A stretch of 63,210 nt of DNA, from contig JAGLWU010000020.1 of NCBI GenBank assembly GCA_023133275.1, positions 1 through 63,210 of the forward strand. Direction: 5' to 3'. The stretch is from Candidatus Moraniibacteriota bacterium (GTDB lineage Bacteria; Patescibacteriota; Minisyncoccia; Moranbacterales; GCA-2747515). A program made the translations under genes and the position numbers. This document shows positions 3-42,053 of this stretch, one piece after another. The notes beneath the pieces are model-generated. The model had not been told where the DNA came from and did no database searches. It was given only the letters and a program-made list of their open reading frames with translations. Each line of letters opens with the position of its first letter. Within the stretch, counting starts at the first letter, position 1.

Positions 3-518
3 ATTGAGTTTGATAAAAAGTTTGTTATAGTTGGACATCAAAATGCTATTACATATAAAGAGATTTTCAAATTAATAAAAGATAATAAATTGTGGCTTGG
101 TTATGGTTTCAAAGGAGGAGCTGCTCATTTTATCAATAAACATTATGAAGATTATGTTACTGCTGGAGATCACAAAGAAGGAATGATTAGAGTTTCGGGC
201 GTTAATTGGTTTACGAATTTAGATGTAAAAAAGCGTCATGAAGATTTAATTCTTTATAAGACTTATAAGGGAAATGAAAAAGATTATTTAAAATATGAAA
301 ATTTTGATGCGATAAACGTTGATATAACAAAAGAAATTCCAGTGGATTATGAGGGGGCGATGGGCGTGCCGATTACTTTTATGGATAAGTATAATCCTGC
401 TCAGTTTGAGATTGTGAAATTTAGAAAAGGTGATGATGAAAAGGATTTGGTTTATACAATTGACGGTGAAAAGAAATGTCCTTATTTTAGGATTTTAATT
501 AGGAATAAGAAAATTTAG
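3..518 (+). CDS. N6-adenine DNA methyltransferase, M.EcoRI-like (5' end cut by window edge)
   Basis: The frame is open from nt 3, so the listed ORF start at 90 is internal. FDKKFVIVGHQNAITYKEIFKLIKDNKLWLGYG, GAMGVPITFMDKYNPAQFEIVKFRKGDDEKDL and CPYFRILIRNKKI parallel the C-terminal third of M.EcoRI as I recall it (YDKKFLIIANVNSITYKEVF, GVMGVPITFLHKFNPEQFELIKFRKG, CPYFRILIKNK). Confidence 0.8.
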   Translation: MEFDKKFVIVGHQNAITYKEIFKLIKDNKLWLGYGFKGGAAHFINKHYEDYVTAGDHKEGMIRVSGVNWFTNLDVKKRHEDLILYKTYKGNEKDYLKYENFDAINVDITKEIPVDYEGAMGVPITFMDKYNPAQFEIVKFRKGDDEKDLVYTIDGEKKCPYFRILIRNKKI

Positions 519-540
519 TTTTTGAAATTATAATAAAATA

Positions 541-1050
541 ATGAAAAGAAAAAATAAACCAATTAGCATTAGTTTACCTTATGTTAAAATTTATAGAGAT
601 GAAATTGAAGAAATAATAGCTATTTTAGAAGAAAGTGAACCTAAAAAAATAGAATTTGAAGCTAGAGACAAAATTTTTAGCTATGATGAAATAGATAAAT
701 TAAATTCGAATGATATTAGTAACCTTGTAATAAGTGCTAAATATGATTGGATTCAAAGTTTTAATATTGATTTTTATAGGTTTGGTGTTAATATTTTTGA
801 TACGCATAGTGATCATCCTATTAAATATAAAGGAATTGCTAGTGAAATAGAACAACTTTTAAAACAAAAAAAGAAATATTTTATCATTTTTAGTAAATTG
901 GAATTTACTTCAATAGGAAAAAAAATTTATAAAAATACAATTTTTTTAAAATATAAAAAAGATACGCCACATTTTTTTGAAAGAAATAAAGATTATATTA
1001 TAAATTTTTTCATTGCAATGATTAGTTTTTTATTGGGTAAATTTTTATAA
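541..1050 (+). CDS. hypothetical protein with C-terminal hydrophobic helix
   Basis: 169-aa ORF starting 22 nt after the methylase stop. No recognisable motif. The C-terminal FFIAMISFLLGKFL looks like a membrane anchor. Confidence 0.45.
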   Translation: MKRKNKPISISLPYVKIYRDEIEEIIAILEESEPKKIEFEARDKIFSYDEIDKLNSNDISNLVISAKYDWIQSFNIDFYRFGVNIFDTHSDHPIKYKGIASEIEQLLKQKKKYFIIFSKLEFTSIGKKIYKNTIFLKYKKDTPHFFERNKDYIINFFIAMISFLLGKFL

Positions 1051-1100
1051 AAACTTTCCTTAAAAACCAAAGTAATTTATAATAAAATTGTTATTTAAAA

Positions 1101-1136
1101 TAAAAAAAGCACCTACTTTCGAGAATCCGAAAGTAG
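1101..1136 (-). terminator. intrinsic terminator of the 61-aa minus-strand gene
   Basis: CCTACTTTCG / CGAAAGTAGG 10-bp stem (1111-1120 / 1127-1136). On the minus strand it is followed by TGCTTTTTTT. Confidence 0.7.
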
Positions 1137-1158
1137 GGCAGTGTAGGTCATGACCTTA

Positions 1159-1344
1159 TTAAACGTAATTAGCTGCTTTGGCTCGGAGAACTTCCTCTGT
1201 ACCGTCTTTGTGATTATGACGAAGTTGATCAAGTCGGCGTTTCTCTTTAGGGTCCAAGCCAATGGTATTTTTTTTAGCAACCAAGAAATTGCCTTCTTGA
1301 GCAATTTGATTTGTGTCATTAACTGCATGTCTAAGAGTTTTCAT
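1159..1344 (-). CDS. small hypothetical protein (61 aa)
   Basis: Chosen among three overlapping frames. It has an AGGAG Shine-Dalgarno about 7 nt before the ATG and a clean terminator just downstream. The region is locally more GC-rich. Confidence 0.5.
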   Translation of the reverse strand: MKTLRHAVNDTNQIAQEGNFLVAKKNTIGLDPKEKRRLDQLRHNHKDGTEEVLRAKAANYV

Positions 1345-1495
1345 TTCTGTTCTCCTGTAAAAATAAATAGTGGTTTGACTTAAAAATAAGCCATTAACAC
1401 GAGCGGGACTTCCCCAACTCGATAAATAATCATATCAAAAAAATAACATTTTGTCAATATCATTTTTAAACAATAATGATTTATAATAAAAATTC

Positions 1496-2542
1496 ATGAA
1501 AACCAAACTAAAAGAAATTTCGATGAAAGATGAATTAACAGAATTTCTTCTTTACACATCTCCCAGCGGAGAAATAAAAGTAGAAGTCTTTTTGCAGGAC
1601 GAAACAATTTGGCTTACCCAAAAAAGAATAGCAGAACTTTTTGGAAAGGGACGAAGTACCATCACAGAGCATTTACAAAATATTTTTAAAGATGGCGAAT
1701 TACAAGAAGAACTGGTTAGTCGGGATTTCCGACATACCACTCAACACGGTGCTATTGACGGAAAAACACAAGTAAACAGTGTTAAATTTTACAATTTAGA
1801 TGCAGTTTTATCTGTAGGATATCGAGTAAATTCATCACAAGCAACACAATTTAGGATTTGGGCAACTAAAATTTTAGAAGGTTATATCATTAAAGGTTTT
1901 GCAATGAATGTCGAAAGACTAAAAGACCCAACTCCTATTTTTGGAAAAGATTATTTTCGTGAACAGGTAGAAATAATTAGAGATATTCGCAGTAGTGAGC
2001 GAAGAATGTACCAGCAAATTACTGATATTTATGCAGAATGTTCTGTTGATTATGATAAAAATTCAGAAATAACCAAAGAATTTTTTGCCACAGTTCAAAA
2101 TAAACTTCACTGGGCTATCATAAAACAAACAGCCGCAGAAATTATTGTTAATAGAGCTGATTCTACAAAGGAAAAAATGGGACTGACTACTTGGAAAAAT
2201 TCGCCAAAAGGAAAAATAAGAAAGAGAGATGTAAGTGTCGCTAAAAATTATTTAACAGAAAAAGAATTGAAACCATTGAATAGGATAGTGGTAATGTATT
2301 TAGATTATGCTGAACATCAAGCACAGAAAAGTATTGCTATGACAATGAAAGATTGGATAAAAAAATTAGATATTTTTTTACAATTTAATGAAGAAGAGAT
2401 TTTAAAAAATTCAGGTAAGATAACAGCGGAAATAGCTAAAATATTTGCAGAAAATGAATTTGAAAAATATAAAGTAATTCAAAATAAAGATTATATTTCT
2501 GATTTTGACAAGGAAGTTGAAAAATTAAAAATTCATAAATAA
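1496..2542 (+). CDS. rhuM: RhuM-family (virulence protein RhuM-like) protein
   Basis: N-terminal IKVEVFLQDETIWLTQKRIAELFGKGRSTITEHLQNIF, YNLDAVLSVGYRVNSSQATQFRIWATKIL and the overall 348-aa length are typical of the RhuM family. Confidence 0.8.
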   Translation: MKTKLKEISMKDELTEFLLYTSPSGEIKVEVFLQDETIWLTQKRIAELFGKGRSTITEHLQNIFKDGELQEELVSRDFRHTTQHGAIDGKTQVNSVKFYNLDAVLSVGYRVNSSQATQFRIWATKILEGYIIKGFAMNVERLKDPTPIFGKDYFREQVEIIRDIRSSERRMYQQITDIYAECSVDYDKNSEITKEFFATVQNKLHWAIIKQTAAEIIVNRADSTKEKMGLTTWKNSPKGKIRKRDVSVAKNYLTEKELKPLNRIVVMYLDYAEHQAQKSIAMTMKDWIKKLDIFLQFNEEEILKNSGKITAEIAKIFAENEFEKYKVIQNKDYISDFDKEVEKLKIHK

Positions 2543-2568
2543 TTAATTTAAATTTTAACTAAAAAATT

Positions 2569-3651
2569 ATGAAAATCGAACTTAAAGAAATTTCAATTAA
2601 AGATGTCGTAAATAATTATATTAACAACAACGAAGAAGGAGTCATCGGCTACAACGGAAAACTAAACATCCGCCCAAAATACCAAAGAGAATTTGTTTAC
2701 AAAGACGCTCAAAGAGATTCCGTAATCAATACCGTCAGAAAAAATTTCCCACTCAATGTTATGTATTGGGTAAAAAACGAAGACGAAACCTATGAAGTTT
2801 TAGACGGACAACAGAGAACTATAAGCGTTTGCGAATACGTCGCAGGAAATTTTTCACTAAATTATCAATATTTTCACAACCTCGAAGATTCCGAAAAAGA
2901 CGAAATTCTCAATTATAAATTGATGGTTTATTTCTGCGAGGGAACACCTAAAGAAAAATTAGACTGGTTTGAAATCATAAATATTGCTGGAGAAAAATTA
3001 ACCGATCAAGAATTACGAAATGCAATTTACACCGGAACTTGGCTAACCGACGCAAAAAGACATTTCAGTAAATCAGGTTGTCCAGCTTACGGATTGGCAA
3101 GTGATTATTTAAAAGGTTCAGCGATTCGTCAAGATTATTTAGAAACGGCAATTCGCTGGATTAGCGATGATAGTATTAAAGAATACATGGCAGAAAATCA
3201 ACATAAACCAAACGCCAATGAATTGTGGCTATATTTTCAAAGTGTAATAAATTGGATTAAAGTTACTTTTCCAAAATATCGTAAAGAAATGAAGGGAATT
3301 GATTTTGGTGTTTTGTATAATGAATTTAAAGACAAAGAATTTGATTCAGAAAAATTAGAAAAAGAAATAATAGAATTAATGCAAGATGAGGATGTAACAA
3401 AAAAGTCAGGAATTTATTCTTATGTTTTGACAAAAAATGAAAAGTTCTTAAATATCCGTTCGTTTACAGAAAAACAAAAGCGGGAGACTTATGAAAAGCA
3501 AAAAGGTATTTGTGTGAAGTGTGAAAAACATTTTGAATTAAATGAAATGGAGGCGGATCATATTAAACCTTGGCACGAGGGCGGTAAGTCAACATCAGAA
3601 AATTGCCAGATGTTATGTAAAATGTGCAATAGAATTAAATCAGGAAAATAG
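2569..3651 (+). CDS. DUF262/ParB-like nuclease domain protein with C-terminal HNH endonuclease
   Basis: DGQQRT motif (DUF262, GmrSD N-terminal type) near the N-terminus. C-terminal HNH: CVKCEKHF, ADHIKPWHEGGKSTSENCQMLCKMCNRIKSGK. Sits 27 nt downstream of rhuM. Confidence 0.8.
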   Translation: MKIELKEISIKDVVNNYINNNEEGVIGYNGKLNIRPKYQREFVYKDAQRDSVINTVRKNFPLNVMYWVKNEDETYEVLDGQQRTISVCEYVAGNFSLNYQYFHNLEDSEKDEILNYKLMVYFCEGTPKEKLDWFEIINIAGEKLTDQELRNAIYTGTWLTDAKRHFSKSGCPAYGLASDYLKGSAIRQDYLETAIRWISDDSIKEYMAENQHKPNANELWLYFQSVINWIKVTFPKYRKEMKGIDFGVLYNEFKDKEFDSEKLEKEIIELMQDEDVTKKSGIYSYVLTKNEKFLNIRSFTEKQKRETYEKQKGICVKCEKHFELNEMEADHIKPWHEGGKSTSENCQMLCKMCNRIKSGK

Positions 3652-3700: not shown

Positions 3701-3834
3701 AAAAACCTACTCATCTCATTTCGACTGGAGCGAAGCGGAACGTAGAAATCTCAAAGCTTACAGAGAATCATAAAGTTTTGAGATCTCTCGACTTCGCTAT
3801 TGCTACACTCGAGATGACAGCATAAGAGGTTTTT
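3701..3834. repeat. about 130-bp imperfect palindrome (long hairpin element)
   Basis: Left arm AAAAACCTACTCATCTCATTTCGACTGGAGCGAAG...ATCTCAAA faces right arm TTTGAGATCTCTCGACTTCGCT...CTCGAGATGACAGCATAAGAGGTTTTT. The GAGATGACAG end resembles the ...ATGACAG ends of other intergenic units. Confidence 0.6.
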
Positions 3835-4739: not shown

Positions 4740-4765
4740 ATTATTAACTCTTTTCAAAATTAAAA

Positions 4766-4785
4766 CAAGGAGTCATGACTCCTTG
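4766..4785. repeat. perfect 20-bp palindrome CAAGGAGTCATGACTCCTTG next to a GC box
   Basis: Read directly. A sequence-variant partner, AACAAGGGGTCATGACCCCTTGTT, sits at 12261-12284 in the same position relative to a GC box. Confidence 0.8.
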
Positions 4786-4793
4786 TCCAAAAA

Positions 4794-10549: not shown

Positions 10550-11959
10550 TTATTTACTAATATCAATTAAAAAATTCGACAAATCCCTTTTGCCAACAAT
10601 CATCCCATATTTCAAATCACCCCGATCAACAATATTCACCCTAGCAATAACAACCTTCTTATCCATAACAAACCTAACCTTAACAACAGGACGAATAGAA
10701 GAACCACTAGAAGAAAAAACAACTGCCACATTATCCAAATCAGGAATCAAATCTTTATATTTCAATAAAAAATCTTTCTTAATCAAAGATTCTTTTTCAG
10801 GTTTTAAATCAAATTCAGATAAATCAATTTTATCAAATTCCTCCAAAGTCTTCCCAAATCCCAAATCAATCGCAATTTTCCGATCAATTGAACTAGAATA
10901 AGCACCCGTATCTATTTTAGCCTCAATTACCACTTCTTGTCCAGCCTTTCCAATCAATTTAACCTTTTCCACCGAACCAATCACACGCTTACCAGAAGTA
11001 CTTTCCAGTTCCTCCTCAATCTCACCACCAAACAAATTTTTACCAACAGCCACTCCTCGAGCAATGCTTTTAATTTTCAAACCAGCCACTCGTTCCAATC
11101 TCTTTTTTAATCCAGTCATATTGGCAACTTGAATAGATAAACCCGGTCGGGCATTTAATTCAAAAAAAACAGGTCCAAGATTTTTATCAACAGCAATGTC
11201 AGATCCTAAAAATCCTAGTTTAGAAACGACTTGAGCTTTTACTGCCAAAGTTAAAATTTCATTCCAATAAGGAATTTTAATACCTGACAACATCAATCTT
11301 GATTTAGGAACATATTCAACAATTTTTCCTTTTCCCTGAACGGCAGTCGTTGTAACACCTTTTGCCATATCAATTCCAATCCCAATCCCGCCTTGTTGCA
11401 AATTAGCTTTGCCGCCAGACTCTCTGGTGGGAATACGGAGCATTGCCATCACAGGAACTTTATTATAAACAATTACTCGAATGTCAGGTATTCCTTTATA
11501 AGCGTACGGTTTAAAATCTTTTATAATTTGCAATCTTTCTTCAAAAAAGGCAATGTCAGGACTGTTGGAAATTGAAAAACCGCCATCGAGAATATTGCGA
11601 ATGTGATCAGTTAAATCCTGTACAGTTACAATTTTCCCATCAGCTTTTATCCATCGATCGTCAAAGCCTTTTTTTCTGGCGTAAACTACTAGAATTCCAG
11701 AACCACCTAATCCACTGTTCGGTTTTAAAACAAAACTTGGTGGTAAAATACTCCAATCAAAATTTTCCAAAGTTTTATGAGAGGAAATTTGGGCAATTAA
11801 TTTTGGAACGGGGATATTATTTTTTTTCAAAAGTTTTTTGGAACGGATTTTATCATCGGCCAGCCTTTTGGCTCCTTTGAGATTATTAGGTCGAATGTAG
11901 GTTAAATTTCGAGCATTCATTCCTAAAATATTTTTTCCAGCTTTGAGTATATTAAACAT
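10550..11959 (-). CDS. alpha-L-glutamate-ligase-related ATP-grasp fused to a C-terminal retropepsin-like (DUF785/RimB-type) domain
   Basis: N-terminal ILGMNARNLTYIRPNN...AKRLADDKIRSKKLL is typical of the RimK-related glutamate-ligase-like family. ATP-grasp core: FVLKPNSGLGGSGILV, PDIRVIVYN, LQQGGIG, VFFELNARPG. C-terminus: VIEAKIDTGAYSSSID, a D-T-G-A aspartyl motif. Confidence 0.75.
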   Translation of the reverse strand: MFNILKAGKNILGMNARNLTYIRPNNLKGAKRLADDKIRSKKLLKKNNIPVPKLIAQISSHKTLENFDWSILPPSFVLKPNSGLGGSGILVVYARKKGFDDRWIKADGKIVTVQDLTDHIRNILDGGFSISNSPDIAFFEERLQIIKDFKPYAYKGIPDIRVIVYNKVPVMAMLRIPTRESGGKANLQQGGIGIGIDMAKGVTTTAVQGKGKIVEYVPKSRLMLSGIKIPYWNEILTLAVKAQVVSKLGFLGSDIAVDKNLGPVFFELNARPGLSIQVANMTGLKKRLERVAGLKIKSIARGVAVGKNLFGGEIEEELESTSGKRVIGSVEKVKLIGKAGQEVVIEAKIDTGAYSSSIDRKIAIDLGFGKTLEEFDKIDLSEFDLKPEKESLIKKDFLLKYKDLIPDLDNVAVVFSSSGSSIRPVVKVRFVMDKKVVIARVNIVDRGDLKYGMIVGKRDLSNFLIDISK

Positions 11960-12072
11960 AATATTTAGATTTTTAGTATTTTAGACAATTAGACTCGTAG
12001 AAACGTAGTACTGCTACGTTTCAAATTTCAATTAGAAATTTATAAATTAATATTTTTCAAAAAGTACAGCCA

Positions 12073-12241
12073 GTCATTCTGAACGGATTTATTTTTTCTA
12101 ACAAAAAAATAAAGGAATAAAAAATCTCAATAAGTTTTTCTGATATTTTCACTTTACTAATTTCAAAGTTTAATATTTTTCCGCAGGGGATTCTTCACTT
12201 CATAAATTTTTTTACAAAAAATTTATTATGTTCAGAATGAC
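12073..12241. repeat. 169-bp palindromic (MITE-like) unit with inverted ends GTCATTCTGAACGG / (C)ATGTTCAGAATGAC
   Basis: The ends and inner segments (AAAGGAATAAAAAATCTC vs GGGGATTCTTCACTTC) are mutually complementary. A second full copy lies at 32442-32604, with half copies at 20436-20492 and 46922-46984. Confidence 0.75.
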
Positions 12242-12291
12242 AGTAAACTTTCAGAATTTCAACAAGGGGTCATGACCCCTTGTTTCAGAAA

Positions 12292-12309
12292 AGCCCGTGC
12301 GGCGAGCAC
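12292..12309 (+). repeat. GC-box repeat, exact
   Basis: AGCCCGTGCGGCGAGCAC, preceded by the 24-bp perfect palindrome at 12261-12284. Confidence 0.9.
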
Positions 12310-12447
12310 AAAAAAATTTTTTGAAAATAATTTAAAACTTAAAACTTAATTAAACTTTTAGATTCAATCTACAAAATTAAACTAATTAATTATTTAAAAA
12401 TTAAAATTTCAATCAAAATTCAAAATTTGTAATTCAAAATTTTCAAA

Positions 12448-13152
12448 CTATTCTTTTATTCTTTTCAACACTTCGCGAAAACGAAAATATTCATTTAATC
12501 TTAATCCAGTCCATTTACCAATAAAAACGTTAAAAGGCAAAATTAGTAAAATTACGAATGGATAAGCTAATACAAAACTTATAATATTGTGTCCAACAGA
12601 TGTTCGGTAGCTCATTAAAATGTATCCGACCAAAGCAATAATCAAAGTTTCTAAAGCTAAAATTGAAGCGGTTTTTGTTCCTTTTTCGATTTGAACGGCG
12701 ACAAATTTTTCTACCAAAGTGATTATGATTAAAATAGCAAATATTGAAGCGGAGGCAAATCCTGTGCGATTGAAATGTCCTGCGACGGCCAATAAAATAA
12801 GTGTGGTGAATGATACGACGGTTATCATTATTGCTACTCTAGGTAAATAAAGAAGACGCATTTTTTTCAAAACATAACGCATGAGCATTCCTGTTGCTAA
12901 AACAATTACATAAATTGCAATGGCATATTTCAAATCCCAAAAATTATTTTCCGCAATTTTAATAAAAGAGACAGTAATAATTGTTGGCGTGTAAACTCCA
13001 AAAGCTTTAATTCCAAGGACTTGTCTTAAAATAACCACGATAGTAGCAATTAATGGAAAGAGAAGTAATAAAATAACAGTGTTTAAAGGTACTCCTGATT
13101 GGATAAAAAAAAGATTGATCCAAGGATGGATGTTAGTGAATAAATTTTCCAT
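12448..13152 (-). CDS. 7-TM membrane protein (7TM_transglut / CapC-PgsC-like)
   Basis: Seven hydrophobic helices. LGIKAFGVYTPTIITVSF resembles the G..P.G..VPG helix of PgsC/CapC-type proteins. The C-terminal GKWTGLRLNEYFRFREVL tail is typical of the 7TM module that accompanies RimK-related ligases. Confidence 0.55.
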   Translation of the reverse strand: MENLFTNIHPWINLFFIQSGVPLNTVILLLLFPLIATIVVILRQVLGIKAFGVYTPTIITVSFIKIAENNFWDLKYAIAIYVIVLATGMLMRYVLKKMRLLYLPRVAIMITVVSFTTLILLAVAGHFNRTGFASASIFAILIIITLVEKFVAVQIEKGTKTASILALETLIIALVGYILMSYRTSVGHNIISFVLAYPFVILLILPFNVFIGKWTGLRLNEYFRFREVLKRIKE

Positions 13153-13163
13153 TGTGAATTTTT

Positions 13164-13673
13164 TTATGAATTAAGTTTCTGTTGGTAAAGACGTGAATTT
13201 AAATGACAAAAGCTAACCGCTAAAGCGTCGGCAGCATCATCTGGTTTCGGAATCTCTTTTAATTTTAGCACATTTTTTATCATTAATTGCATTTGTTTTT
13301 TGTCAGCTCTTCCGTATCCGGTCAAGGCTTGTTTTATTTGTAGAGGTGTATATTCGCCGATTGGTAATTTTTTGTTTTTGCAAATATATAATATTACACC
13401 TCGAGCTTGAGCAACTGTGATGACTGTTTTTTTGTTTTTAAAATAAAATAATTCTTCAACAGCAACTTCATCAGGTTTGTATTCTTTGATTAATTCTTTT
13501 AAATCTTCGCCGATTAAATTTAAACGTTCAGGATTTGGTAAATCAGCAGAAGTGGTTATTTGTCCGTAATCGATTGTTTTTATTTCTTTAGAATTGTCTT
13601 GTTGTTCTAAAATTCCCCAACCAACGATTGCGGTCCCTGGGTCAATTCCAAGAACTTTGATTTTGTTTTTCAT
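13164..13673 (-). CDS. ruvC: crossover junction endodeoxyribonuclease RuvC
   Basis: VLGIDPGTAIVGWGIL, VAVEELFYFKN, ADKKQMQ, DDAADALAVSFCH. Confidence 0.9.
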   Translation of the reverse strand: MKNKIKVLGIDPGTAIVGWGILEQQDNSKEIKTIDYGQITTSADLPNPERLNLIGEDLKELIKEYKPDEVAVEELFYFKNKKTVITVAQARGVILYICKNKKLPIGEYTPLQIKQALTGYGRADKKQMQLMIKNVLKLKEIPKPDDAADALAVSFCHLNSRLYQQKLNS

Positions 13674-13692
13674 ATTTTCGAAAAATTAAATT

Positions 13693-13710
13693 GTGCTCGC
13701 CGCACGGGCT
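13693..13710 (-). repeat. GC-box repeat, exact (reverse orientation)
   Basis: GTGCTCGCCGCACGGGCT, 20 nt upstream of the ruvC start codon. Confidence 0.9.
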
Positions 13711-13714
13711 TTTT

Positions 13715-13734
13715 GGGTTTAAAATTTTAAACCC
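13715..13734. repeat. perfect 20-bp palindrome GGGTTTAAAATTTTAAACCC followed by CTACAA
   Basis: Same position relative to the GC box as GGGTTTGCCAGTGGCAAACCC at 41843-41863 and GGGTTTGCCAGTAGCAAACCC at 54595-54615. A reverse copy lies at 32644-32667. Confidence 0.85.
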
Positions 13735-14051
13735 CTACAAATTTTTAAATCCTCCAGTTTTATCATTCAGACATGTCATTCCGGAAAATTTTTTATTTTT
13801 GAAAAAAATCAAAAATTTATCCGGAATCTTAAACTTTAATATTTAAGAAAACATTAAGTACAATGTTCTTCCGAGATCCTTATAAAAAATGAAATAATTT
13901 TTCAGGATGACAAGACAGAGAGGATCTGCACTCAGCTTGATTGGGTGATGACACATAATAGATTTGTGATAATTTTTATTTAGAACGACAAACTTTTCTC
14001 TTCTCTTTTTTCAAAAAGTCTAGTTTTCTAATCATCTAATGAGTTAATTAT

Positions 14052-14786
14052 CTATTCCACGTTGTCAAAAATTTCTTGAACATCATCTTGACTGTCGATG
14101 ATCTCAAAAAGTTTATTATACTCCATTTTTGTCTCTTTGTCAATGATAATCGGTTGTTTTGAAATATAATTTATTTTTAAATCTTTGACTTGAAAACCAT
14201 CTTTCTCAAGCTTTTTATAGACTTTTTGCACATTAATTTTTTCAGTAATTACAAGTATTTCTTTTTCACTGACTTTTTCTAAATCTTTTGCACCTGCTTC
14301 GATTATAGCTAATTCAATAAAATCAAAATTATCGGATTTTTCAGTTTCTAAAATGAATTGTCCGACTTCTTCGAACTGAAAACTGACGCTTCCGTTGGGT
14401 ACAAATTTTCCACTATTTTTTTTCAACAAAGATTTTATTTCGCTGACTGTTCTGTTTATATTATCAGTGGCACAGAGAATCATCATGGCGATCATTTCGT
14501 CGGTGTTGGTGGGGAAGTAGGCTTCATAAAATACTTCCTCGATTTTTCCTTCACCGCTTTGTCCCAATCCTCTTTTTATTGCTCGGTTGATGTTGTCTTT
14601 TGGCATATTGGCTTTTTTGGCTTGTTCGATGGCGATTTTTAAGGTGGAGTTTTTTTCGATGTCATTGCCTCCGCTTTGGACGGAAATTATGATTGCTTTG
14701 GCGAGGCGGGAGAATATTTTTGAGCGTTTGGAGTCTTGGGCTTCTTTGCGGTGTTTGATTCCTGACCATTTATTGTGTCCTGACAT
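14052..14786 (-). CDS. yebC: YebC/PmpR-family transcriptional regulator
   Basis: MSGHNKWSGIKHRKEAQDSKRSKIFSRLAKAI, NMPKDNINRAIKRG. Confidence 0.9.
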   Translation of the reverse strand: MSGHNKWSGIKHRKEAQDSKRSKIFSRLAKAIIISVQSGGNDIEKNSTLKIAIEQAKKANMPKDNINRAIKRGLGQSGEGKIEEVFYEAYFPTNTDEMIAMMILCATDNINRTVSEIKSLLKKNSGKFVPNGSVSFQFEEVGQFILETEKSDNFDFIELAIIEAGAKDLEKVSEKEILVITEKINVQKVYKKLEKDGFQVKDLKINYISKQPIIIDKETKMEYNKLFEIIDSQDDVQEIFDNVE

Positions 14787-20375: not shown

Positions 20376-20393
20376 GTGCTCGTCGCACGGGCT
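20376..20393 (-). repeat. GC-box repeat, 1 substitution
   Basis: GTGCTCGTCGCACGGGCT, whose reverse complement is AGCCCGTGCGACGAGCAC. Confidence 0.85.
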
Positions 20394-20435: not shown

Positions 20436-20492
20436 GGGGGATTCTTCATTCCTTTATTTTTTTAAAGAAAAAATAAATCCGTTCAGAATGAC
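20436..20492. repeat. half copy of the palindromic unit
   Basis: GGGGGATTCTTCATTCCTTTATTTTTTTAAAGAAAAAATAAATCCGTTCAGAATGAC is the reverse of the left half of the 12073-12241 unit. Confidence 0.7.
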
Positions 20493-20564
20493 AGGAAATT
20501 TTAAAAAAACTTATTGGGATTATTGTACTCACAATACACTTTTATTCTTTCAGTATAACACCAC

Positions 20565-21896: not shown

Positions 21897-24800
21897 TTAC
21901 AAATCTGTAACTCTTTTAACTTCATCAAAAGTCGTAACACCTTCCAACGCCTTCAAAACACCATCCTGTTTTATCGTTAACATACCATTTTCAATCGCTT
22001 TCTTTTTAATTTCAGAAGCCAGTTCACCATGCGAAATCACTAAACGCAAATCATCGTCTATCACCAAAATTTCACTAATTACCGTTCTACTTTTATAACC
22101 AATTTCATTACATTTCTCACAACCAACCTTTTCGTATAAATAATTCATTTCAGGAATTGGAAAATCAATTTTTGGAGTAATATTTTCAATAATTTTTGAA
22201 ATAATATTTTTTTGTTCTTCTGTTATTTTTACTTTCTTTTTACAATCGCAAAGTTTACGCACCAATCTTTGAGCGACAAAAGCATTTACAGAAGTAGTAA
22301 TATCATCCGTACTAATTCCTAAATTTAACAATCTTTGAATTGCACCAATTGCATCATTCGTGTGAAGTGAAGAAATTAATAAATGTCCCGTCAAAGCAGC
22401 ATTTACAGCCGTTTCAGCCGTTTCATTGTCACGAATTTCACCAACCAACATTATATCGGGATCCTGACGAAGAAGTGAACGTAAAGCAGAAGAAAAAGTG
22501 TAGCCAGATTCCTGATCAATTTGAGTTTGCAAAATTCCATCCAACTGATATTCAATCGGATCTTCAATAGTTATAATTTTAACTTCAGGACTTTGAATTT
22601 CTTTTAACAGACTGTAAAGAGTGGTAGTTTTTCCAGAACCAGTTGGTCCAGTGTTCAAAATAATTCCATGAGGTTTTTTTACTTCTTTAATTATTTTATT
22701 TAAATTGTACGGACGAATTCCCAAGACATTAATATTTAATTCTACAGTTTCTCTATTCAACAAACGCAACACAACCGTTTCACCAAAGCCTCCAGCGATT
22801 ATAGAAACACGAACATCCATTTTAAAATCTTTCATTTCATTTTCCACTTCATAAAGAACTCGGAAGCGACTATCGGAAACGCCTTGTCGAACTGTAGTGG
22901 GAATATTACTCAATTCTTTTATTTTTCCAAGTAGCGGAGGATAATTAATTAAAGGTATTTCAGCTATATTTTGTAACACGCCATCAACTCTCATTCTGAT
23001 AAAAACTTTTTCTTCTTGTGGTTCAATGTGAATATCACTGGCTCTCAAAAATTTTCCGTAAGCAAAAATGAGAGGTAGCATATCTTGATCGTTGGCTTTA
23101 TTTATACTTTCATTAATAACATTTTTACCGTGAGAAAGCTCTTGCGACATTTTCTGTTTTTCAATATCGACGAAAACTCCACGAGAAAGAGTTTGAAACA
23201 TTAAATCATCGTAAAGACTTTTAATTAAATCACTTTCTGACGTAACTCTAAAAATTTCTTCCATTGAAGTAACGCCGTCAATTGCTTTTAATACACCATC
23301 TTGTGTCATAGTAACAAAGCCTTCCTCAATTGCCGTTTTCATAATTGCTGTTTCACTTTCCATATTTAAAATCAATTTTTCAATATTTTCGCTCATGGTG
23401 AGAACTTCAAAAATTCCAATCCGTCCTTTGTAGCCAGTTTGATTACATTTTTTACAACCTCTTGGTTTATAAAGATGGGAAACGGTTTTTGGGATTTTCA
23501 CTTTTGCTTTTGGAGAAACTAAAGTCAACATTTGCAATAAAGTTTCAATTGTTTCTTGAGCAGGTTCATATCTCTCTTTGCAACCACACAATTTTCGAAC
23601 TAATCTTTGTGCCATAAAAATATTGGTAGCGGCGGGAATTAAAGTTGGCTTAACTCCTAATTCTAAAAGTCGAGAAACAGTGGCTGGAGCATTATTAGTG
23701 TGTAAAGTTGATAAAACTAAATGTCCTGTCAAGGCAGCATTGATAGCAATGTTAGCCGTTTCATCATCACGAATTTCACCAACTAAAATAATATCAGGAT
23801 CTTGACGAACGATGGCACGTAAACCCTTGGCAAAAGTATAATTTTTATCTTTAGAGACTTCAGTTTGAGAAATTCCTTCAATCTCATATTCAATCGGATC
23901 TTCAATCGTAATTATTTTTGTTTTAGGAGTTTTGATATGATTTACTAAAGTGTAAAGAGTAGTAGTTTTACCAGAGCCAGTTGGTCCTGTCGTTAAAATC
24001 ATTCCAGTATTTTTACTAATATTATTTTGAACATCCTCCGCCGCTTTTCCAATCAAGCCTAATTCTGACATTTGAACATTGATACTTTCGTTATCTAAAA
24101 GACGCATCACAATTCCTTCAAATTTTTTCCCTGGAATACTACTGACTCTGACATCAATGGAACGAGTTTTATTAACGCTAAAAGAAAAGTGTCCATCTTG
24201 TGCTTCTCTTTTAATATTGATTTTCATTCCGCTCATTAATTTAATCCGAGAAAGAGCTAATTTATAAGTTTTGTGTGGAAAATTAACAATATCTTGTAAA
24301 ACACCATCAATTCTGTAACGTAATCGCACACCCTCTTTTTGTGGCTCAAGATGAATGTCGCTGGCATTCAATTTTACTGCCGCAGAAAAAAGAATATGTA
24401 AAAGCTCAGTGGTCGGCATTGAATCAATTTTATTTTTCAAATCCAACAGTTTTCCAATTCCTGTGTTAAAATTTTCTAACTCTTCGCCAGTCAACATTAA
24501 ACGCATCACGTCTATTGAATCGATAAAATAAGCCCCTCGATATTGTTTTAAGGCTTGTTCTAAAGATGATGGTGAAATTACATACAATCTAATTTCCCAA
24601 TTATTTGTTTCACTTAATTCATTTAGAAATTCTAAAGTATCGCTGTTCAACGGATCGGTTGTTCCTATTCTTATTAAATTTCCAGCTCGGAAAAAAATGA
24701 CTAGATTGTATTTTTCAGAAAGTTCTTGTTTTATTAAAGATACGTCATCACTATTTATTGGCAGTAGGTGTAAATCTGCATAACCCAAACTTAATTTTCT

Positions 24801-24917
24801 GGCTATTCGAGAGGCATATTCCTCAGATCCTTTTTCTTGAAGCATTTCTATTTCTCGTCGAGTTTCTTCTTCGTGGAGAGGTTGTGATTTTTGTGTTGTT
24901 TGGGTTACTTTGACCAT
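21897..24917 (-). CDS. pilB: tandem-duplicated type IV pilus / T2SS assembly ATPase (PilB/GspE x2 in one polypeptide)
   Basis: N-terminal T2SSE_N-like domain, then two full ATPase cores. Module 1: ASDIHLEP, GPTGSGKTTTLYTL, DPDIILVGEIRD, TGHLVLSTLHTN, CGC...CKKCNQTGYKGRIGIFE. Module 2: ASDIHIEP, GPTGSGKTTTLYSL, DPDIMLVGEIRD, TGHLLISSLHTN, CDC...CEKCNEIGYKSR. Confidence 0.85.
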   Translation of the reverse strand: MVKVTQTTQKSQPLHEEETRREIEMLQEKGSEEYASRIARKLSLGYADLHLLPINSDDVSLIKQELSEKYNLVIFFRAGNLIRIGTTDPLNSDTLEFLNELSETNNWEIRLYVISPSSLEQALKQYRGAYFIDSIDVMRLMLTGEELENFNTGIGKLLDLKNKIDSMPTTELLHILFSAAVKLNASDIHLEPQKEGVRLRYRIDGVLQDIVNFPHKTYKLALSRIKLMSGMKINIKREAQDGHFSFSVNKTRSIDVRVSSIPGKKFEGIVMRLLDNESINVQMSELGLIGKAAEDVQNNISKNTGMILTTGPTGSGKTTTLYTLVNHIKTPKTKIITIEDPIEYEIEGISQTEVSKDKNYTFAKGLRAIVRQDPDIILVGEIRDDETANIAINAALTGHLVLSTLHTNNAPATVSRLLELGVKPTLIPAATNIFMAQRLVRKLCGCKERYEPAQETIETLLQMLTLVSPKAKVKIPKTVSHLYKPRGCKKCNQTGYKGRIGIFEVLTMSENIEKLILNMESETAIMKTAIEEGFVTMTQDGVLKAIDGVTSMEEIFRVTSESDLIKSLYDDLMFQTLSRGVFVDIEKQKMSQELSHGKNVINESINKANDQDMLPLIFAYGKFLRASDIHIEPQEEKVFIRMRVDGVLQNIAEIPLINYPPLLGKIKELSNIPTTVRQGVSDSRFRVLYEVENEMKDFKMDVRVSIIAGGFGETVVLRLLNRETVELNINVLGIRPYNLNKIIKEVKKPHGIILNTGPTGSGKTTTLYSLLKEIQSPEVKIITIEDPIEYQLDGILQTQIDQESGYTFSSALRSLLRQDPDIMLVGEIRDNETAETAVNAALTGHLLISSLHTNDAIGAIQRLLNLGISTDDITTSVNAFVAQRLVRKLCDCKKKVKITEEQKNIISKIIENITPKIDFPIPEMNYLYEKVGCEKCNEIGYKSRTVISEILVIDDDLRLVISHGELASEIKKKAIENGMLTIKQDGVLKALEGVTTFDEVKRVTDL

Positions 24918-28843: not shown

Positions 28844-29341
28844 CTACCGAATCAAAAACTTTCCCTTATCATCTGACAAGTTCAAAAAATCATCCAGAGA
28901 CTCAATCAAACGCATGCTCGTCGATTCCCCAAAAGAAACACCCTCAACCCTACATCCAGTCGTTGCCTGCAAATACTCCACTAAAGGAATATAATCACCA
29001 TCACCAGACGCCAAAATAATCACATCTACATGTTTTGACAATTTAATTGCATCTACTGCCACCCCAACATCCCAATCACCTTTCTTCTGCCCACCTGGAA
29101 AAATCTGTAAATCTTTAGTTTTCACTTCGTAACCAGCTTTCTCCAAAGCATCAAAAAATTTATCTTCTGACGCTTCTTCAGTTGCAATGCCATAACCGAT
29201 TGAACGAATTAATTTTCGATTCCCCACAGATTCAGTCAACAAATTCTTATAATTCACCTTTTTTTTATACAAAACTTTCGCACTGTAATATAAATTTTGA
29301 ATGTCCACCAAAACGGCCACTCGTTGATCTTTATGTTTCAT
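28844..29341 (-). CDS. NYN-domain (LabA-like) protein
   Basis: RVAVLVDIQNLYYS, GDWDVGVAVDAI, VDVIILASGDGDYIPLVEYLQ. Confidence 0.8.
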   Translation of the reverse strand: MKHKDQRVAVLVDIQNLYYSAKVLYKKKVNYKNLLTESVGNRKLIRSIGYGIATEEASEDKFFDALEKAGYEVKTKDLQIFPGGQKKGDWDVGVAVDAIKLSKHVDVIILASGDGDYIPLVEYLQATTGCRVEGVSFGESTSMRLIESLDDFLNLSDDKGKFLIR

Positions 29342-29702
29342 AAACTTTTTATTTAAAAATTACTACTTTTATTTTATCACACATTTTGTTTTAGTAAAAA
29401 ATATTTTGGAAAAAACAAGGATTTAATGTGTTGAATAAAATTTATCGAAATTGTTATATTTTATTTTAATTTACTTTTATTGTATTTGCAAAGATGAAAA
29501 TTTTTTAAATTTATTTTTTTGAAAATGTTTAATGCAAGTTTATTTACAGACAAATTATTCAAAAATAAGGATTGACATTAAATTAGGTAAAGTTTATTCT
29601 TAATTATAATTGAGGAAAAGGTTGTGATAAAAATTTGAAAAATCTTTTTGAAAATTTTCATTTTAAATATAATAAAATGAAAATGCAAACTATTTTCAAA
29701 AA

Positions 29703-29720
29703 AAGCCCGTGCGGCGAGCA
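29703..29720 (+). repeat. GC-box repeat, exact
   Basis: AGCCCGTGCGGCGAGCAC, 25 nt upstream of the 29745 start codon. Confidence 0.9.
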
Positions 29721-29744
29721 CTTTTTTAATTATTAAAATATTTT

Positions 29745-30491
29745 ATGAAAGAACAGGATATTATTGAGCGGTTTCGGATTTGTCGTTATGGTAAATCGGA
29801 TTCTGTTGTCGTGGAGGGGATTCATGCTTTTAAACATGCGTATCGTTTTGGGGCGAAATTTGAAAATGTTTTTTGTTCGAATAAAAATAAAGTTATTTCT
29901 TTGACGGCGAAAATTGCGAGTGAGAGGGAGGCAAAAATTTTGAGTGATTTGATTGTGGAAGTGGATGGTGATTTTTTAGCGAAACTGTCTCCGCATCCGA
30001 TTCGAACTGAATTGATTTCTTTGGTGAAAAAACCTGAACAGAAAAAGATTACGGATTTAGATCAGGATAAACCGATTGTTTTTTTGGAAAATCCACATGA
30101 TACGAAGAATGTTGGAGCGACGGTTCGAGTGGCAGCGGCGTTTGGGGTGGCGGCTTTGTGTGTGAGTGGGGAAATTAATCCTTGGCATGCGGGTTGTGTT
30201 AAATCTGGTTCTGGTTTGCATTTTGCGATTCCGATTTTTAAAGTAAAAAGTCTTGAGGAAATTTCTTCAGGGCGAATGACAGTGGCTTGTGATGCGGATG
30301 GTGAAAATATGTATGAGACGGTTTTGCCGAAAAATTCTATTTTGGTTTTTGGGACGGAGCGGTATGGAATTACGGACGGGGTTAAGAAATCTGTGGATAA
30401 AATTATTTCGATTCCGATGATGGAGAATGTTTCGAGTTTGAATTTGGCGACTTCGGTTTCGGCTGTTTTGTTTGGAGCTAATTTTAGCTAG
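29745..30491 (+). CDS. TrmH/SpoU-family RNA 2'-O-methyltransferase
   Basis: FLENPHDTKNVGATVRVAAAFG, LVFGTERYGIT, ISIPMMENVSSLNLATSVSAVLF. Confidence 0.85.
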   Translation: MKEQDIIERFRICRYGKSDSVVVEGIHAFKHAYRFGAKFENVFCSNKNKVISLTAKIASEREAKILSDLIVEVDGDFLAKLSPHPIRTELISLVKKPEQKKITDLDQDKPIVFLENPHDTKNVGATVRVAAAFGVAALCVSGEINPWHAGCVKSGSGLHFAIPIFKVKSLEEISSGRMTVACDADGENMYETVLPKNSILVFGTERYGITDGVKKSVDKIISIPMMENVSSLNLATSVSAVLFGANFS

Positions 30492-31419: not shown

Positions 31420-32334
31420 ATGAAAATAGATTTGCGAAATAATATGTTGGATAAAACTCAAGAGGAAAAAAGTCAGAAAAAAACTGGATTATTCAACAGT
31501 CTTTTTGGTAGTAAAAAAAAGATTAAAAAGTTAAAATCAGGATCTCGAATAATTAAAAAAATAGAAGCACCTAAACAAATTGGGCAAGAAAATTTACAAA
31601 TAAATAACCAGTCAAAATCATCGGTTCAATTTGATGTTTCAAATAAATTTTCAGAATTAGAAAATAACATTTCAAAAATTAACGAAATTGGTATTGGAGA
31701 ATCAGAATTTCAACCAAAAAAAGAAACTGAGCAAAAGGAAAGAAAACAAGAAAAAATTATTGGAGAGAAAAATTTTGAGCAGAAAAAAAACTCTAAAAAT
31801 TCTATTGAACAGGATTATCAGCGAAATGTTAAATATTCTTATCAAGAAAGTGAATACATAAAAGAGTCGCCTGAAAAAGTGTTGATTAAGTGGCAGGGAC
31901 CAGATTATGAAATTTATCCGAAGAGTAAACGGTGGTATACGATTGCAGGATTTATTTTGGCTGGGTTGGTAGCTTATGCGGTTTTTAAGGACAGTCCTTT
32001 GACGGCGATTGTTTTTATTCTTATTGGGATTGTGGGGTATATGTATTTGGAGCGTGATCCTCAGTTGACTGATTTTGCGGTTAGTTATGATGGGATTGTG
32101 GTGGGGAACGAAATTTATGATTGGGATGATATTGTTTCTTTTTGGATTTTTTATGATCCGCCACATACTCGAGTGATTAGTTTGCACATGAAAGGGAAAT
32201 TGATGCCTTACATTCATATTCCTTTGCACCAGATTGATCCAGTTGAGGTTCGGGAAAAAATGATGGAATTTGTTCCAGAAATTAAACAGGAACAGGGAAT
32301 GGTGGATATTTTGGAGCGACTTTTACACATGTAA
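31420..32334 (+). CDS. hypothetical membrane protein (low-complexity N-terminus, two TM helices, bPH-like C-terminus)
   Basis: 304-aa ORF. Lys/Glu/Gln-rich N-terminal half, then WYTIAGFILAGLVAYAVF and AIVFILIGIVGYMYL helices. Confidence 0.5.
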   Translation: MKIDLRNNMLDKTQEEKSQKKTGLFNSLFGSKKKIKKLKSGSRIIKKIEAPKQIGQENLQINNQSKSSVQFDVSNKFSELENNISKINEIGIGESEFQPKKETEQKERKQEKIIGEKNFEQKKNSKNSIEQDYQRNVKYSYQESEYIKESPEKVLIKWQGPDYEIYPKSKRWYTIAGFILAGLVAYAVFKDSPLTAIVFILIGIVGYMYLERDPQLTDFAVSYDGIVVGNEIYDWDDIVSFWIFYDPPHTRVISLHMKGKLMPYIHIPLHQIDPVEVREKMMEFVPEIKQEQGMVDILERLLHM

Positions 32335-32340
32335 GGATAA

Positions 32341-32678
32341 ATTTTTAAACAATTAGACTTGTAGAAACGTAGCAATGCTACGTTTTGAATAGAGATTTAT
32401 AAATTAAAAATTTTCAAATAATACAGTTCGTCATTTTGTCTGTCATATCTGAACGGATTTATTTTTTCTTCAAAAAAATAAAGGAGTGAAGAATCTCGAT
32501 AAGTTTTTCTGGTATTTTAGTAATTTCAAAGTTTTGTGATTTTCCGCAGGGGATTCTTCACTGCATAAATTTATCTGCGATAAATTTATTACGTTCAAAA
32601 TGACAGCAAACTTGAATAACAAAAAATTTGAATGTTGAAATTTGTAGGGGTTTAAAATTTTAAATCCAAAAAGCCCGT
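32341..32678 (+). repeat. composite intergenic element, copy A2 (ends in a truncated GC box AGCCCGT)
   Basis: Collinear with 11961-12309. Includes the 163-bp palindromic unit at 32442-32604 and the reverse GTAG palindrome TGTAGGGGTTTAAAATTTTAAATCC. Confidence 0.85.
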
Positions 32679-32764
32679 ATTTGAAAATGTTTTGAAGATA
32701 TTAAAAAACCACCAATGAGAATTGGCGGTTTTTTATTTTATGAAACTCTTGCTTTTTATAGTTT

Positions 32765-33707: not shown

Positions 33708-34082
33708 TTTTTAAAGTATTAGAAAAATTTGTGATGTATTTATAGTGTCAGAAAAACTTATTGGGATTGCCACGTTTCTTCCTACAGTCGTTCCTCGCAA
33801 TGACGTGCTTATGCCAAAATTGACTTTTTTGCTTTAAAATGCGAGAATTAAAATAGTAATTTATTAATTAGAAAAATAGTTTTTTGGCTATGAAGATACA
33901 TATGCGTTTTGTTTTATTTTTTAATGAATGCGTATGTATATTTATAGCAACTTTGTTTAAAGTTTAAGATTCCGGATAAAATTTTCATTTTTCTATGAAA
34001 AACAAAAATTTTTCCGGAATGACAGAATTTTTTAAATTATTCAAAAAATAAAGTTAAACAAAAATTATTTTTCTTAACAAAT

Positions 34083-37041: not shown

Positions 37042-37046
37042 ATTTT

Positions 37047-40489: not shown

Positions 40490-40585
40490 GTAGGAAACGC
40501 ATATATGCGTTCCCTACTACGAAATGAAGGAATATTTTAGAATTTCGAAAAATGTTGAATGGTGAAAAGTCCGTGCGGCGAGCAC
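40490..40585 (+). repeat. GTAG palindrome + conserved linker + GC box (copy C1; box has 1 substitution)
   Basis: GTAGGAAACGCATATATGCGTTCCCTAC, then ..GAATGAAGGAATATTTTAGAATTTCGAAAAATGTTGAATGGTGAAA, then AGTCCGTGCGGCGAGCAC (40568-40585). Confidence 0.85.
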
Positions 40586-40601
40586 TTGAATTCTCTTAAA
40601 A

Positions 40602-41820: not shown

Positions 41821-41868
41821 GTGCTCGCCGCACGGGCTTTTCGGGTTTGCCAGTGGCAAACCCCTACA
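41821..41868 (-). repeat. GC box (exact, reverse) + palindrome GGGTTTGCCAGTGGCAAACCC + CTACA
   Basis: GTGCTCGCCGCACGGGCTTTTCGGGTTTGCCAGTGGCAAACCCCTACAG. The box lies 26 nt upstream of the 41795 start codon. Confidence 0.9.
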
Positions 41869-42053
41869 GATTTTTAAACCCCCTAAGATATGTCATTCCG
41901 GAAATTTTTTTATTTTTGAATTTTATCGTAGAGACGTTTTGCCAAAACGTCTCTATTTGATTATGTGATGACAAAATGAAAAAATGTATAAGTTTTACGA
42001 AAAGGGATTTTAAAAAATGTTATTTGTGTTATAATAAATGTAATATAAAATAA

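Follow-up and report, generated by a model that had tools for sequence, protein, structure and literature searches.

The closest described counterparts of the repeats reported here come from Neisseria. The first is the NTS (CGTCATTCCCGCGMAVGCGGGAATCYRG, CGTCATTCCCGCG..CGCGGGAATCYRG), an oriented extension of the dRS3 repeat, which is bound as single-stranded DNA (ssDNA) only, and cut a few nucleotides upstream, by SsnA, a 94-aa GIY-YIG protein that shows no interaction with RNA (Chenal et al. 2025, PMC11893778). Cleavage hinges on the triplet that precedes the palindrome, the C behind it matters most for binding, and the system reduces transformation by NTS-bearing DNA (PMC11893778). Ssn-related motifs (SRMs), for which a degenerate pattern was derived from 29 genomes of four phyla, flank 71% of the ssn homologs, and the NTS-ssnA-NTS arrangement was likened to an insertion sequence (IS) by its authors (PMC11893778). 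The second is the NIME, in which inverted dRS3 repeats surround RS elements of 50-150 bp in syntenic but variable arrays, at that time unknown outside Neisseria (Bentley et al. 2007, PMC1797815). Here we analyzed a stretch of 63,210 nucleotides from Candidatus Moraniibacteriota bacterium, a member of the Candidate Phyla Radiation (CPR) (contig JAGLWU010000020.1 of assembly GCA_023133275.1, hereafter the window), which contains composite intergenic elements that are probably non-coding mosaics of hairpin repeats built around an inverted SRM doublet.

Two of these composites, which the initial annotation had described as aligning module for module, were found to carry the same modules in the same order. 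Copy A (11961-12309) and copy B (32341-32679) are ~85% identical over 270 bp (collinear match 11979-12250 vs 32343-32613), the mean column identity was 83% over 412 columns when regions 11950-12335 and 32325-32700 were compared, and the modules could be located exactly. Copy A begins with an array in which TAG recurs every 8 nt (TAGA array, 11966-12000, +), 7 nt from the start codon of a (-) strand ATP-grasp gene. It is followed by the GTAG hairpin GAAACGTAGTACTGCTACGTTTC (12000-12022, +; RNA fold -12.5 kcal/mol, z = -4.0), also found in copies B and C, and by an AT-rich linker with ATTTATAAAT (12034-12069, +), similar sequences being present after the TAGA/hairpin module at further loci. Next come the unit (12073-12243), the perfect palindrome AACAAGGGGTCATGACCCCTTGTT (12261-12284), an optional module given that the unit end abuts the GC box directly at other loci, and a complete GC box, AGCCCGTGCGGCGAGCAC (12292-12309, +). 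In copy B, the array (32346-32364, +) and the hairpin (32364-32386, +) begin 12 nt past the stop codon of the gene 31420-32334 (+) and lead to the linker with ATTTATAAAT (32391-32426, +) and the unit (32430-32606; left half 32442-32497, right half 32549-32606), which carries at its left end an extra GTCATTTTGTCT of about 13 nt (32430-32441). The palindrome is not the same sequence in the two copies: copy A has AACAAGGGGTCATGACCCCTTGTT and copy B the GTAG palindrome GTAGGGGTTTAAAATTTTAAATCC (32644-32667, +) next to a GC box cut down to AAAAAGCCCGTA (32668-32679, +), a stretch with 82% complementarity to 13704-13769. The sequence GTTCAGAATGACAG occurs five times, vs 0.27 expected.

The same DNA is contig DAOVMA010000002.1 of the metagenome-assembled genome GCA_030630955.1, from cold-seep metagenomes, and an ENA scaffold (L139) prolongs the window 9.46 kb leftward, up to dnaA/dnaN. 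Homologs of its ATP-grasp proteins bear Moranbacteria/Parcubacteria names. Since dnaA/dnaN lie ~2-3 kb left of the window and the GC skew is uniformly positive, the + strand is the leading strand. A third complete composite, copy C (L139 1537-1876), lies in the same genome ~8 kb left of the window, with the same module order on the opposite strand; three collinear composites are present within ~73 kb of one genome. Two more units come from a related species, GCA_942490825.1 (its ATP-grasp ortholog shares 85% identity).

The unit had been described as having inverted ends and complementary inner segments, an anatomy borne out by both the alignment and the folds. Its 165 bp are two inverted half-units around a conserved centre of ~55 nt, with GTCAT facing outward at both ends. 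In copy A, the left half (12073-12128, +) is an SRM-type hairpin in GTCAT orientation with a degenerate 3' arm (AATAAAAAATCTC); the centre, here of ~57 nt (12129-12185; ..AAGTTTTTCTG..TAATTTCAAAGTTT..TTTTCCGCA), is conserved in five units from two species; and the right half (12186-12243, -), with a DNA fold z of -3.7, reads on the (-) strand as CTGTCATTCTGAAC, an AT hairpin and GTGAAGAATCCCC. On the opposite strand, a half-unit reads YTGTCATTCTGAACG, the AT-rich hairpin and AGTGAAGAATCYC. Ten half-units (copies A, B and C, two solo elements and the relative) aligned with 81% identity, and their consensus on the strand that starts with GTCAT is YTGTCAT-TCTGAAC-G-(11-12-bp AT hairpin)-A-GTGAAGA-ATC-YC. 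The outer stem is near-invariant, with ATTCT/AGAAT, two unpaired positions per side and then AC/GT, and tandem G.A mismatches occur in the AT-rich stem. The inner hairpin varies in sequence between copies and keeps its pairing (98.3% of the cells pair), with compensatory double changes at 7 of the 11 pairs of the helix, values that 0 of 500 shuffles reached. The full unit folded with z = -6.0 in copy B, and most hairpin copies had DNA fold z values of -2.3 to -6.2; those at 33761-33806 and 3780-3820 were not above shuffles. Across the two species, at sites that are not orthologous, the whole unit including its spacer is conserved, as are ~15 nt of the flank to its left (TTCAAA.A.TACA).

Although the initial annotation had left this repeat family without a name, the half-units, as well as the hairpins ending in ATGACA elsewhere in the window, carry the GTCAT-stem...stem'-ATC-Y signature of the SRMs (PMC11893778). 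In the half-units this signature, GTC-ATTCT...AGAAT-C, contains both the triplet ahead of the palindrome and the C behind it, the positions that govern how SsnA cleaves and binds the Neisseria NTS, and the usual short GNA-type loop is replaced by the 11-12-bp AT-rich hairpin. The other hairpins of the window keep GTCAT...ATC while the foot of their stem varies complementarily (ATTCCGG/CCGGAAT, ATCCT/AGGAT, ATCTCGA/TCGAGAT, ATTGC/GCAAT). The determinant positions are thus found as YTGTC-ATTCT..AGAAT-CCCC, GTC-ATTCCGG..CCGGAAT-CTT and GTC-ATCCT..AGGAT-CTC. In total there are ~20 elements in the 63 kb, every one of them intergenic, and they are clustered.

The arms of the half-unit are not confined to this lineage. 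When the pattern GATTCTTCAN{26,40}GTTYARAATGAC was scanned against one genome per prokaryotic species, it was found at no fewer than 119 loci (at least) in more than 15 phyla, the estimated chance expectation being ~16. The matches listed include Bacteroidota, Clostridia, KSB1, Acidobacteriota, Planctomycetota, Chloroflexota, Nitrospinota, Cyanobacteria, Saccharibacteria and Paceibacterota, and among them positions left free in the pattern are conserved, namely the C after GATTCTTCA (121/128), the A after ATGAC (95/128) and CTNC before GTTCAGA. A hairpin is more frequent in the insert than in shuffled inserts: among the matches listed, 45 had a stem of 6 bp or longer, vs 9 after shuffling. A short version, GATTCTTCACTNCGTTCAGAATGACA, is frequent, often as tandem copies, and nine matches to the half-unit pattern were in viral contigs. 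Only one protein family recurred by the matches listed, a GIY-YIG protein of ~100 aa encoded at seven loci; its open reading frames (ORFs) of 95-115 aa have the single domain PF01541 in all seven, and in six they lie within 1.5 kb of the motif. In a Saccharibacteria contig (L097), for example, GTCATTCTGAACGCAGTGAAGAATCTC ends 6 nt before the GIY-YIG start codon and an inverted SRM is found 3' of the gene, and in Nitrospina (L065) the same sequence is ~35 nt upstream of the GIY-YIG gene, within an array that mixes several types of SRM. With the Saccharibacteria Ssn as query, a protein search returned homologs named from Patescibacteria and Daviesbacteria; no Moranbacteria-labelled homolog was among its best 120 matches.

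The elements also differ between related genomes. The spacer between the gene for the seven-transmembrane (7TM) protein and the ATP-grasp genes has 488 bp here vs 123 bp in GCA_942490825.1 and 146 bp in a 79% relative, while in an 84% relative it has the GC box and no unit; the YebC-RuvC spacer has 378 bp here vs 87 bp in GCA_942490825.1. The comparison of orthologous spacers that had been proposed as a check revealed differences in presence or absence, but not the target-site duplications that it was also meant to disclose: the five units that were aligned all lack direct repeats at their flanks. Beyond the motifs, intergenic sequence in the relatives has diverged too far for alignment, so exact insertion boundaries are not definable. 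In GCA_942490825.1, complete units (L101 905-1072 and 5835-6057) sit beside two orthologous GC boxes, whose counterparts in the window adjoin another doublet (49641-49847) and a GTAG palindrome (54593-54618). In the metagenome, contigs of other loci show the TAGA array, the unit end without the palindrome, or the unit centre abutting the GC box. Together with the third copy and the units in the relative, these variant junctions agree with the expectation that module boundaries recur. Copy number is high, with a summed contig depth of 220-330x for the right half-unit and 699x for the GC box compared to 12-14x for single-copy flanks, which puts the half-unit at 15-25 times single-copy depth. In GCA_942490825.1 (L101 5766-5800 and 5850-5945), a small GC-rich palindrome, CCTGCCTGTCGGCAGACAGG, is nested in the unit at two places and splits the GC box; it looks like a further species-specific invader and has no counterpart in the window.

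The modules at the edges of the composites are abundant in their own right. The window has 14 copies of the GC box, (A)AAGCCCGTGCGGCGAGCAC, vs 0 in shuffles, all intergenic, at 4795, 12293, 13693(-), 20376(-), 29705, 33691, 40569, 41821(-), 45748, 47775, 49855, 54574(-), 55072 and 57485. Each copy borders a repeat array, its GAGCAC side lying 4-110 nt from a gene boundary, and its (-) strand folds into a small terminator-like hairpin, GCTCGCCGCACGGGC, followed by TTTT. The exact 17-mer has been retained at orthologous positions in two related genomes; between the window and the relative's species, these positions include one upstream of ruvB and one downstream of the PBP1 gene. In divergent spacers the box also precedes start codons by 19-25 nt (RuvC, 29745, 41795). 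A plain terminator was ruled out as its identity, as spacers of all three kinds (divergent, convergent and tandem) contain it and its distance upstream of a start is often 20-110 nt. Scanning the JGI metagenome contigs for the box gave 12 matches, all of them chance matches in high-GC contigs. As for the TAGAnnnn arrays, ten were found (11966, 14020(-), 20283, 32354, 33493, 38867, 46661, 47628, 59215 and 62910), with 22 overlapping matches vs 0.9 in shuffles. Because TAG is spaced by 8 nt, the arrays place stops in all three frames. Seven of the ten begin at or just past a stop codon on the same strand, their first TAG often being that stop codon, and lead into a terminator-like hairpin; the other three are antisense, directly upstream of (-) strand gene starts. 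CTA-type arrays likewise precede the ATG of the orthologous ATP-grasp gene in the relatives L004 and L005. The TAGA/hairpin module and the GC box resemble punctuation at gene boundaries, with the SRM units grafted onto it. One GC box, with a T-run, ends 23 nt before the start of a SpoU methylase gene in a divergent spacer of 400 bp (29341-29745), which also has a near-consensus TTGACA box at ~29576 and could hold an unannotated small transcript.

Taken together, these observations lead us to favor, with moderate confidence, the explanation that the composite is a non-coding mosaic of hairpin repeats, with an inverted SRM doublet as its core, that is spread and reshuffled by an Ssn-type system. 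Judging from sequence, the half-units appear to be an AT-rich variant of the SRM (dRS3/NTS) family in a CPR genome; they are placed there on account of their shared arms, the GIY-YIG linkage and intermediate forms, and not by the published pattern. Since the outward GTCAT geometry equals that of the SRMs around ssn in the Saccharibacteria contig, the unit may be to an SRM-ssn-SRM element what a MITE (miniature inverted-repeat transposable element) or a REPIN is to its parent IS, so that the 165-bp doublet would be a non-autonomous derivative. The mobilizing mechanism is one that we infer, as neither an ssn gene nor a transposase nor a target-site duplication was found in the DNA examined. The hairpins would extrude in ssDNA, at replication or in incoming transforming DNA, and would be recognized and bound by a small GIY-YIG nuclease of the Ssn type encoded elsewhere in the genome or lineage. 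Cuts just outside each GTCAT, with recombination between hairpins, would then allow units to spread, be deleted and be reshuffled beside conserved landmarks (the GC box and the TAGA/terminator modules), and the outcome would be NIME-like arrays that differ among related genomes.

Several observations weigh against this explanation. With phmmer on six-frame ORFs, no ssn (GIY-YIG) gene was detected in the window, in the 9.5 kb that extend it or in 29 kb from the relative (L139, L004, L101), and across phyla a GIY-YIG gene is nearby at 6% of the loci listed. The published degenerate SRM pattern, HGTCWYN(0-2)YYVSBRHN(0-5)WNVSBRGN(0-2)RNCYNB, had 0 matches in the window, which we attribute to AT-rich stems and long loops; checked by hand, the short cross-phylum form GTCATTCTGAACGNAGTGAAGAATC fails it as well. 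All eight wobble cells of the alignment are T.G on the GAT...ATGAC strand, and thus C.A mismatches on the GTCAT strand, the one reported to be cut by SsnA. Finally, neither the conserved spacer nor the conserved left flank (TTCAAA.A.TACA) is accounted for.

As in Neisseria, a possible role for the host, proposed by analogy, is the limiting of recombination of taken-up ssDNA in a DNA-scavenging lineage. A wider proposal, which we offer as a tentative and rather doubtful one, is that such a CPR lineage has its own NIME-like Ssn/SRM system, in which the doublets are non-autonomous SRM-ssn-SRM derivatives that insert preferentially beside the lineage-specific 17-nt GC box with its conserved position and, with an Ssn nuclease, gate the recombination of incoming ssDNA. 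If this were true, the transformation control known from Neisseria would extend to Patescibacteria, and a target-site landmark would be new for SRMs.

Among the alternatives, one needs no dedicated enzyme: homologous or illegitimate recombination and slippage between hairpins would reshuffle the modules, and the likeness to SRMs would be the fossil of an ancient invasion. It fits the arrays at syntenic landmarks whose content differs by species, as for NIME arrays (PMC1797815), the module junctions that differ among loci and the lack of a local ssn gene, and in the published survey 19% of the genomes with >200 SRMs have no ssn homolog (PMC11893778). We consider it unlikely, because two species keep the whole unit, with its spacer, at sites that are not orthologous, and the GTC/C determinants are kept, as is the pairing by means of compensatory change. 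End-to-end conservation together with compensatory change points to ongoing selection or templated spread.

The units or half-units might instead act as RNA, as a small RNA gene or as a cis stabilizer, terminator or insulator within operons. The strong covariation of the hairpin and the restriction of the wobble pairs to one strand speak for this, the arrays are within probable operons (YebC-RuvC and 7TM-ATP-grasp), and the adjoining GTAG hairpin and GC box are terminator-like. Nevertheless, copy A is inverted relative to transcription when compared to copies B and C, the unit itself is two-fold symmetric and no T-run follows the SRM stems. An Rfam search of the whole window at the gathering threshold, and of 11900-14100 at E<=10, gave two tRNAs and noise, and nothing else, no RNA run was found that contains this sequence, and SsnA shows no interaction with RNA (PMC11893778). 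A function as RNA is for these reasons distinctly unlikely.

A classical MITE with terminal inverted repeats, moved in trans by a DDE transposase, is very unlikely. The initial annotation had called the unit MITE-like, and its shape does justify the term, with 165 bp and inverted ends of at least 12 bp (GTCATTCTGAAC/GTTCAGAATGAC); the unit is also present or absent at orthologous sites. The likeness ends there: the five units are without flanking direct repeats, the left flank is conserved past the inverted repeat, half-units occur alone, the terminal sequences are the SRM hairpins seen beside GIY-YIG genes, and no transposase was found in the ~100 kb examined.

A system of repetitive extragenic palindromes (REPs) driven by a RAYT (Y1 transposase) is more improbable again, in spite of the mosaic arrangement, the GTAG hairpin and the GTAG palindromes by GC boxes (13715-13738, 32644-32667, 41840-41865 and 54593-54618). 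The unit ends are GTCAT and not GTAG, the neighbor that recurs across phyla is GIY-YIG and not Y1, and a search of the window's ORFs detected no transposase, RAYT/Y1_Tnp or GIY-YIG gene. Lastly, an assembly artefact (a duplicated or chimeric repeat), which had been raised as what might undo the initial proposal, has a negligible probability: short-read contigs do break at these repeats (L001 and L005 start inside them), but copies A and B are ~15% different and are tiled by unitigs of two independent runs with 0 differences, which excludes a duplication, and the same architecture is found in three assemblies and in a second species. One reservation is that the halves of copy B meet at a 30-mer common to another contig, from another locus, so that this join rests on the assembler.

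Apart from the composites, the window holds the half-units and hairpins on which the family assignment also draws. Half-units standing alone, as had been listed, are present at 20436-20494 (-), with part of the unit centre, adjoining the GC box 20376-20392 and 96% complementary to 32448-32495, and at 46929-46986 (-; z = -5.7). The hairpins related by their ATGACA ends are present too, with the correction that 3701-3834 is not one hairpin; it is an SRM doublet of another type at 3715-3820, composed of 3715-3752 and 3780-3820 (CTCATTTCGAC..GAAATCTC / GAGATCTCTCGA..CTCGAGATGACAG), and 83% conserved at the orthologous site of the relative L004. The SRM-type hairpin ATGTCATTCCGGAAA...TCCGGAATCTTAA (13773-13832, +; z = -4.8) has the stem ATTCCGG..CCGGAAT, near that of dRS3 (ATTCCC..GGGAAT), and a sister at 33964-34025 (-; z = -6.2). 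Others are TTGTCATCCTGAAA..AAGGATCTCGG (13871-13914, -), the element ACGTCATTGCGAGGAACGA..GTGGCAATCCCAA (33761-33806, -), whose pairing is limited to a 5-bp ATTGC/GCAAT foot, a truncated SRM (ATGTCATTCCGGAAA...; 41890-41920, +) that adjoins a GTAG palindrome and the GC box 41821-41837, the short palindrome ACATGTCATTCAGGATGACATG (45626-45647) and the degenerate SRM-type hairpin GAGATTCTGAAT...TTAGGATGACATG (59286-59325, -). Integron attC sites were also considered and ruled out, as the R''/R' cores misfit RYYYAAC/GTTRRRY.

Further repeat families were observed alongside. Doublets of ~207 bp at 46706-46912 and 49641-49847, 82% identical and with the ends ATATGTCATGCTGG.../...TTCAGGATGAT, have an inverted-SRM architecture like that of the unit but their own arms and centre. 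A 97-nt family (40490-40586, 45669-45765 and 47696-47792) combines a GTAG...CTAC palindrome, the conserved stretch GAATGTTTTAGAATTTCGAAAAATGTTGAATGGTG and the GC box. Perfect palindromes around GTCATGAC or the near variant AACAAGGGGTCATGACCCCTTGTT are found at 4765-4788, 12261-12284 and 54505-54528, and at 8966-8989 of L139, located 3' of genes and adjoining GC boxes, with back-to-back GTCAT/ATGAC in their centre. Two direct repeats of ~70 nt (TATAGTTAAACAC.AACT.TAGATT...TTAAGCTAAAAATAAGC; 59585-59745) lie upstream of the gene 59751-60908.

Regarding the neighboring genes, the region from dnaN to dciA (90-3651; L139 9028-13111) encodes an EcoRI-type methylase, a RhuM-family gene and a GmrSD/HNH gene. 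In the relatives L004 and L005, dnaN is close to dciA and these defence-type genes are absent from that position, which suggests a small defence-type insertion near the origin. An Eco47II-type restriction endonuclease is paired with a C-5 cytosine methylase at 36292-38072 (-). The 1006-aa protein encoded at 21897-24917 has two T2SSE (PilB-like) ATPase modules, and the internal DNA repeats 22351-22668 and 23689-24006, 75-78% identical, point to a tandemly duplicated secretion/pilus ATPase.

The assignment ties intergenic repeats of the CPR to the recently characterized Ssn/SRM system, and gives the NIME-type mosaics, once held to be Neisseria-specific, a counterpart in Patescibacteria. It is plausible that SRM-type repeats were previously undescribed in the CPR, as a literature search returned no description of such repeats there and the main text of the Ssn paper mentions neither CPR nor Patescibacteria (PMC11893778). 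Given that the AT-rich variant is missed by the published pattern, current censuses probably undercount the family. In practical terms, these repeats break short-read CPR assemblies, and they widen spacers inside operons (488 bp vs ~130 between the 7TM gene and its ATP-grasp partners). If an Ssn nuclease is present, they may also influence how DNA that has been taken up recombines in organisms reliant on such uptake.

In comparison with described systems, Correia elements and other MITEs with terminal inverted repeats resemble the unit in their length of ~150 bp, their inverted ends and their position, intergenic and sometimes in operons. Correia elements have TA target duplications. Their terminal inverted repeats are of 51 bp (PMC1797815), whereas the ends here are self-folding hairpins that also stand alone, and no duplication was seen. 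REPIN/BIME systems with a RAYT (PMC3116915, PMC2817692) share with this locus the inverted hairpin doublets with a spacer, the mosaic clusters, the lack of target-site duplications and a presumed enzyme that recognizes ssDNA hairpins and is encoded elsewhere in single copy. The difference is that REPs have a 5' GTAG and a Y1 HUH transposase, while the unit has GTCAT ends and a GIY-YIG association, with no RAYT found. The likeness to the bacterial interspersed mosaic elements (BIMEs) of enterobacteria, drawn by the initial annotation, holds for the shuffled intergenic mosaic; the nearest architecture, however, is that of the Neisseria NIME.

NIMEs (PMC1797815) also consist of inverted dRS3-type repeats of ~20 bp around spacers of 50-150 bp, comparable to the ~55-nt centre of the five units here, and their arrays are likewise syntenic, vary in content between genomes and are interspersed with other repeats. 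On the other hand, they are GC-rich, were reported as Neisseria-specific and form long arrays with >100 RS families, whereas in this Moranbacteria-like CPR host there are one or two conserved spacer families, short arrays and lineage-specific modules (the GC box and the TAGA arrays), and the stems are ATTCT.., ATTCCGG.. and ATCCT.. in place of the dRS3 consensus ATTCCC-N8-GGGAAT. From the SRM/NTS and SsnA system (PMC11893778), the elements differ in their AT-rich stem with tandem G.A mismatches, their length of ~58 nt vs 20-50 nt, their loop, which is an 11-12-bp AT hairpin, their conserved 165-bp doublets, the failure of the published pattern to match them and their CPR host. Common to both are the oriented hairpin, GTCAT-stem-stem'-ATC-pyrimidine, with stems that begin with ATTC(C/T), and the intergenic, multi-copy and clustered occurrence. 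The same arms are found beside ~95-aa single-domain GIY-YIG genes in other phyla, including the CPR Saccharibacteria, and the outward GTCAT geometry of the unit is that of the SRM-ssn-SRM layout.

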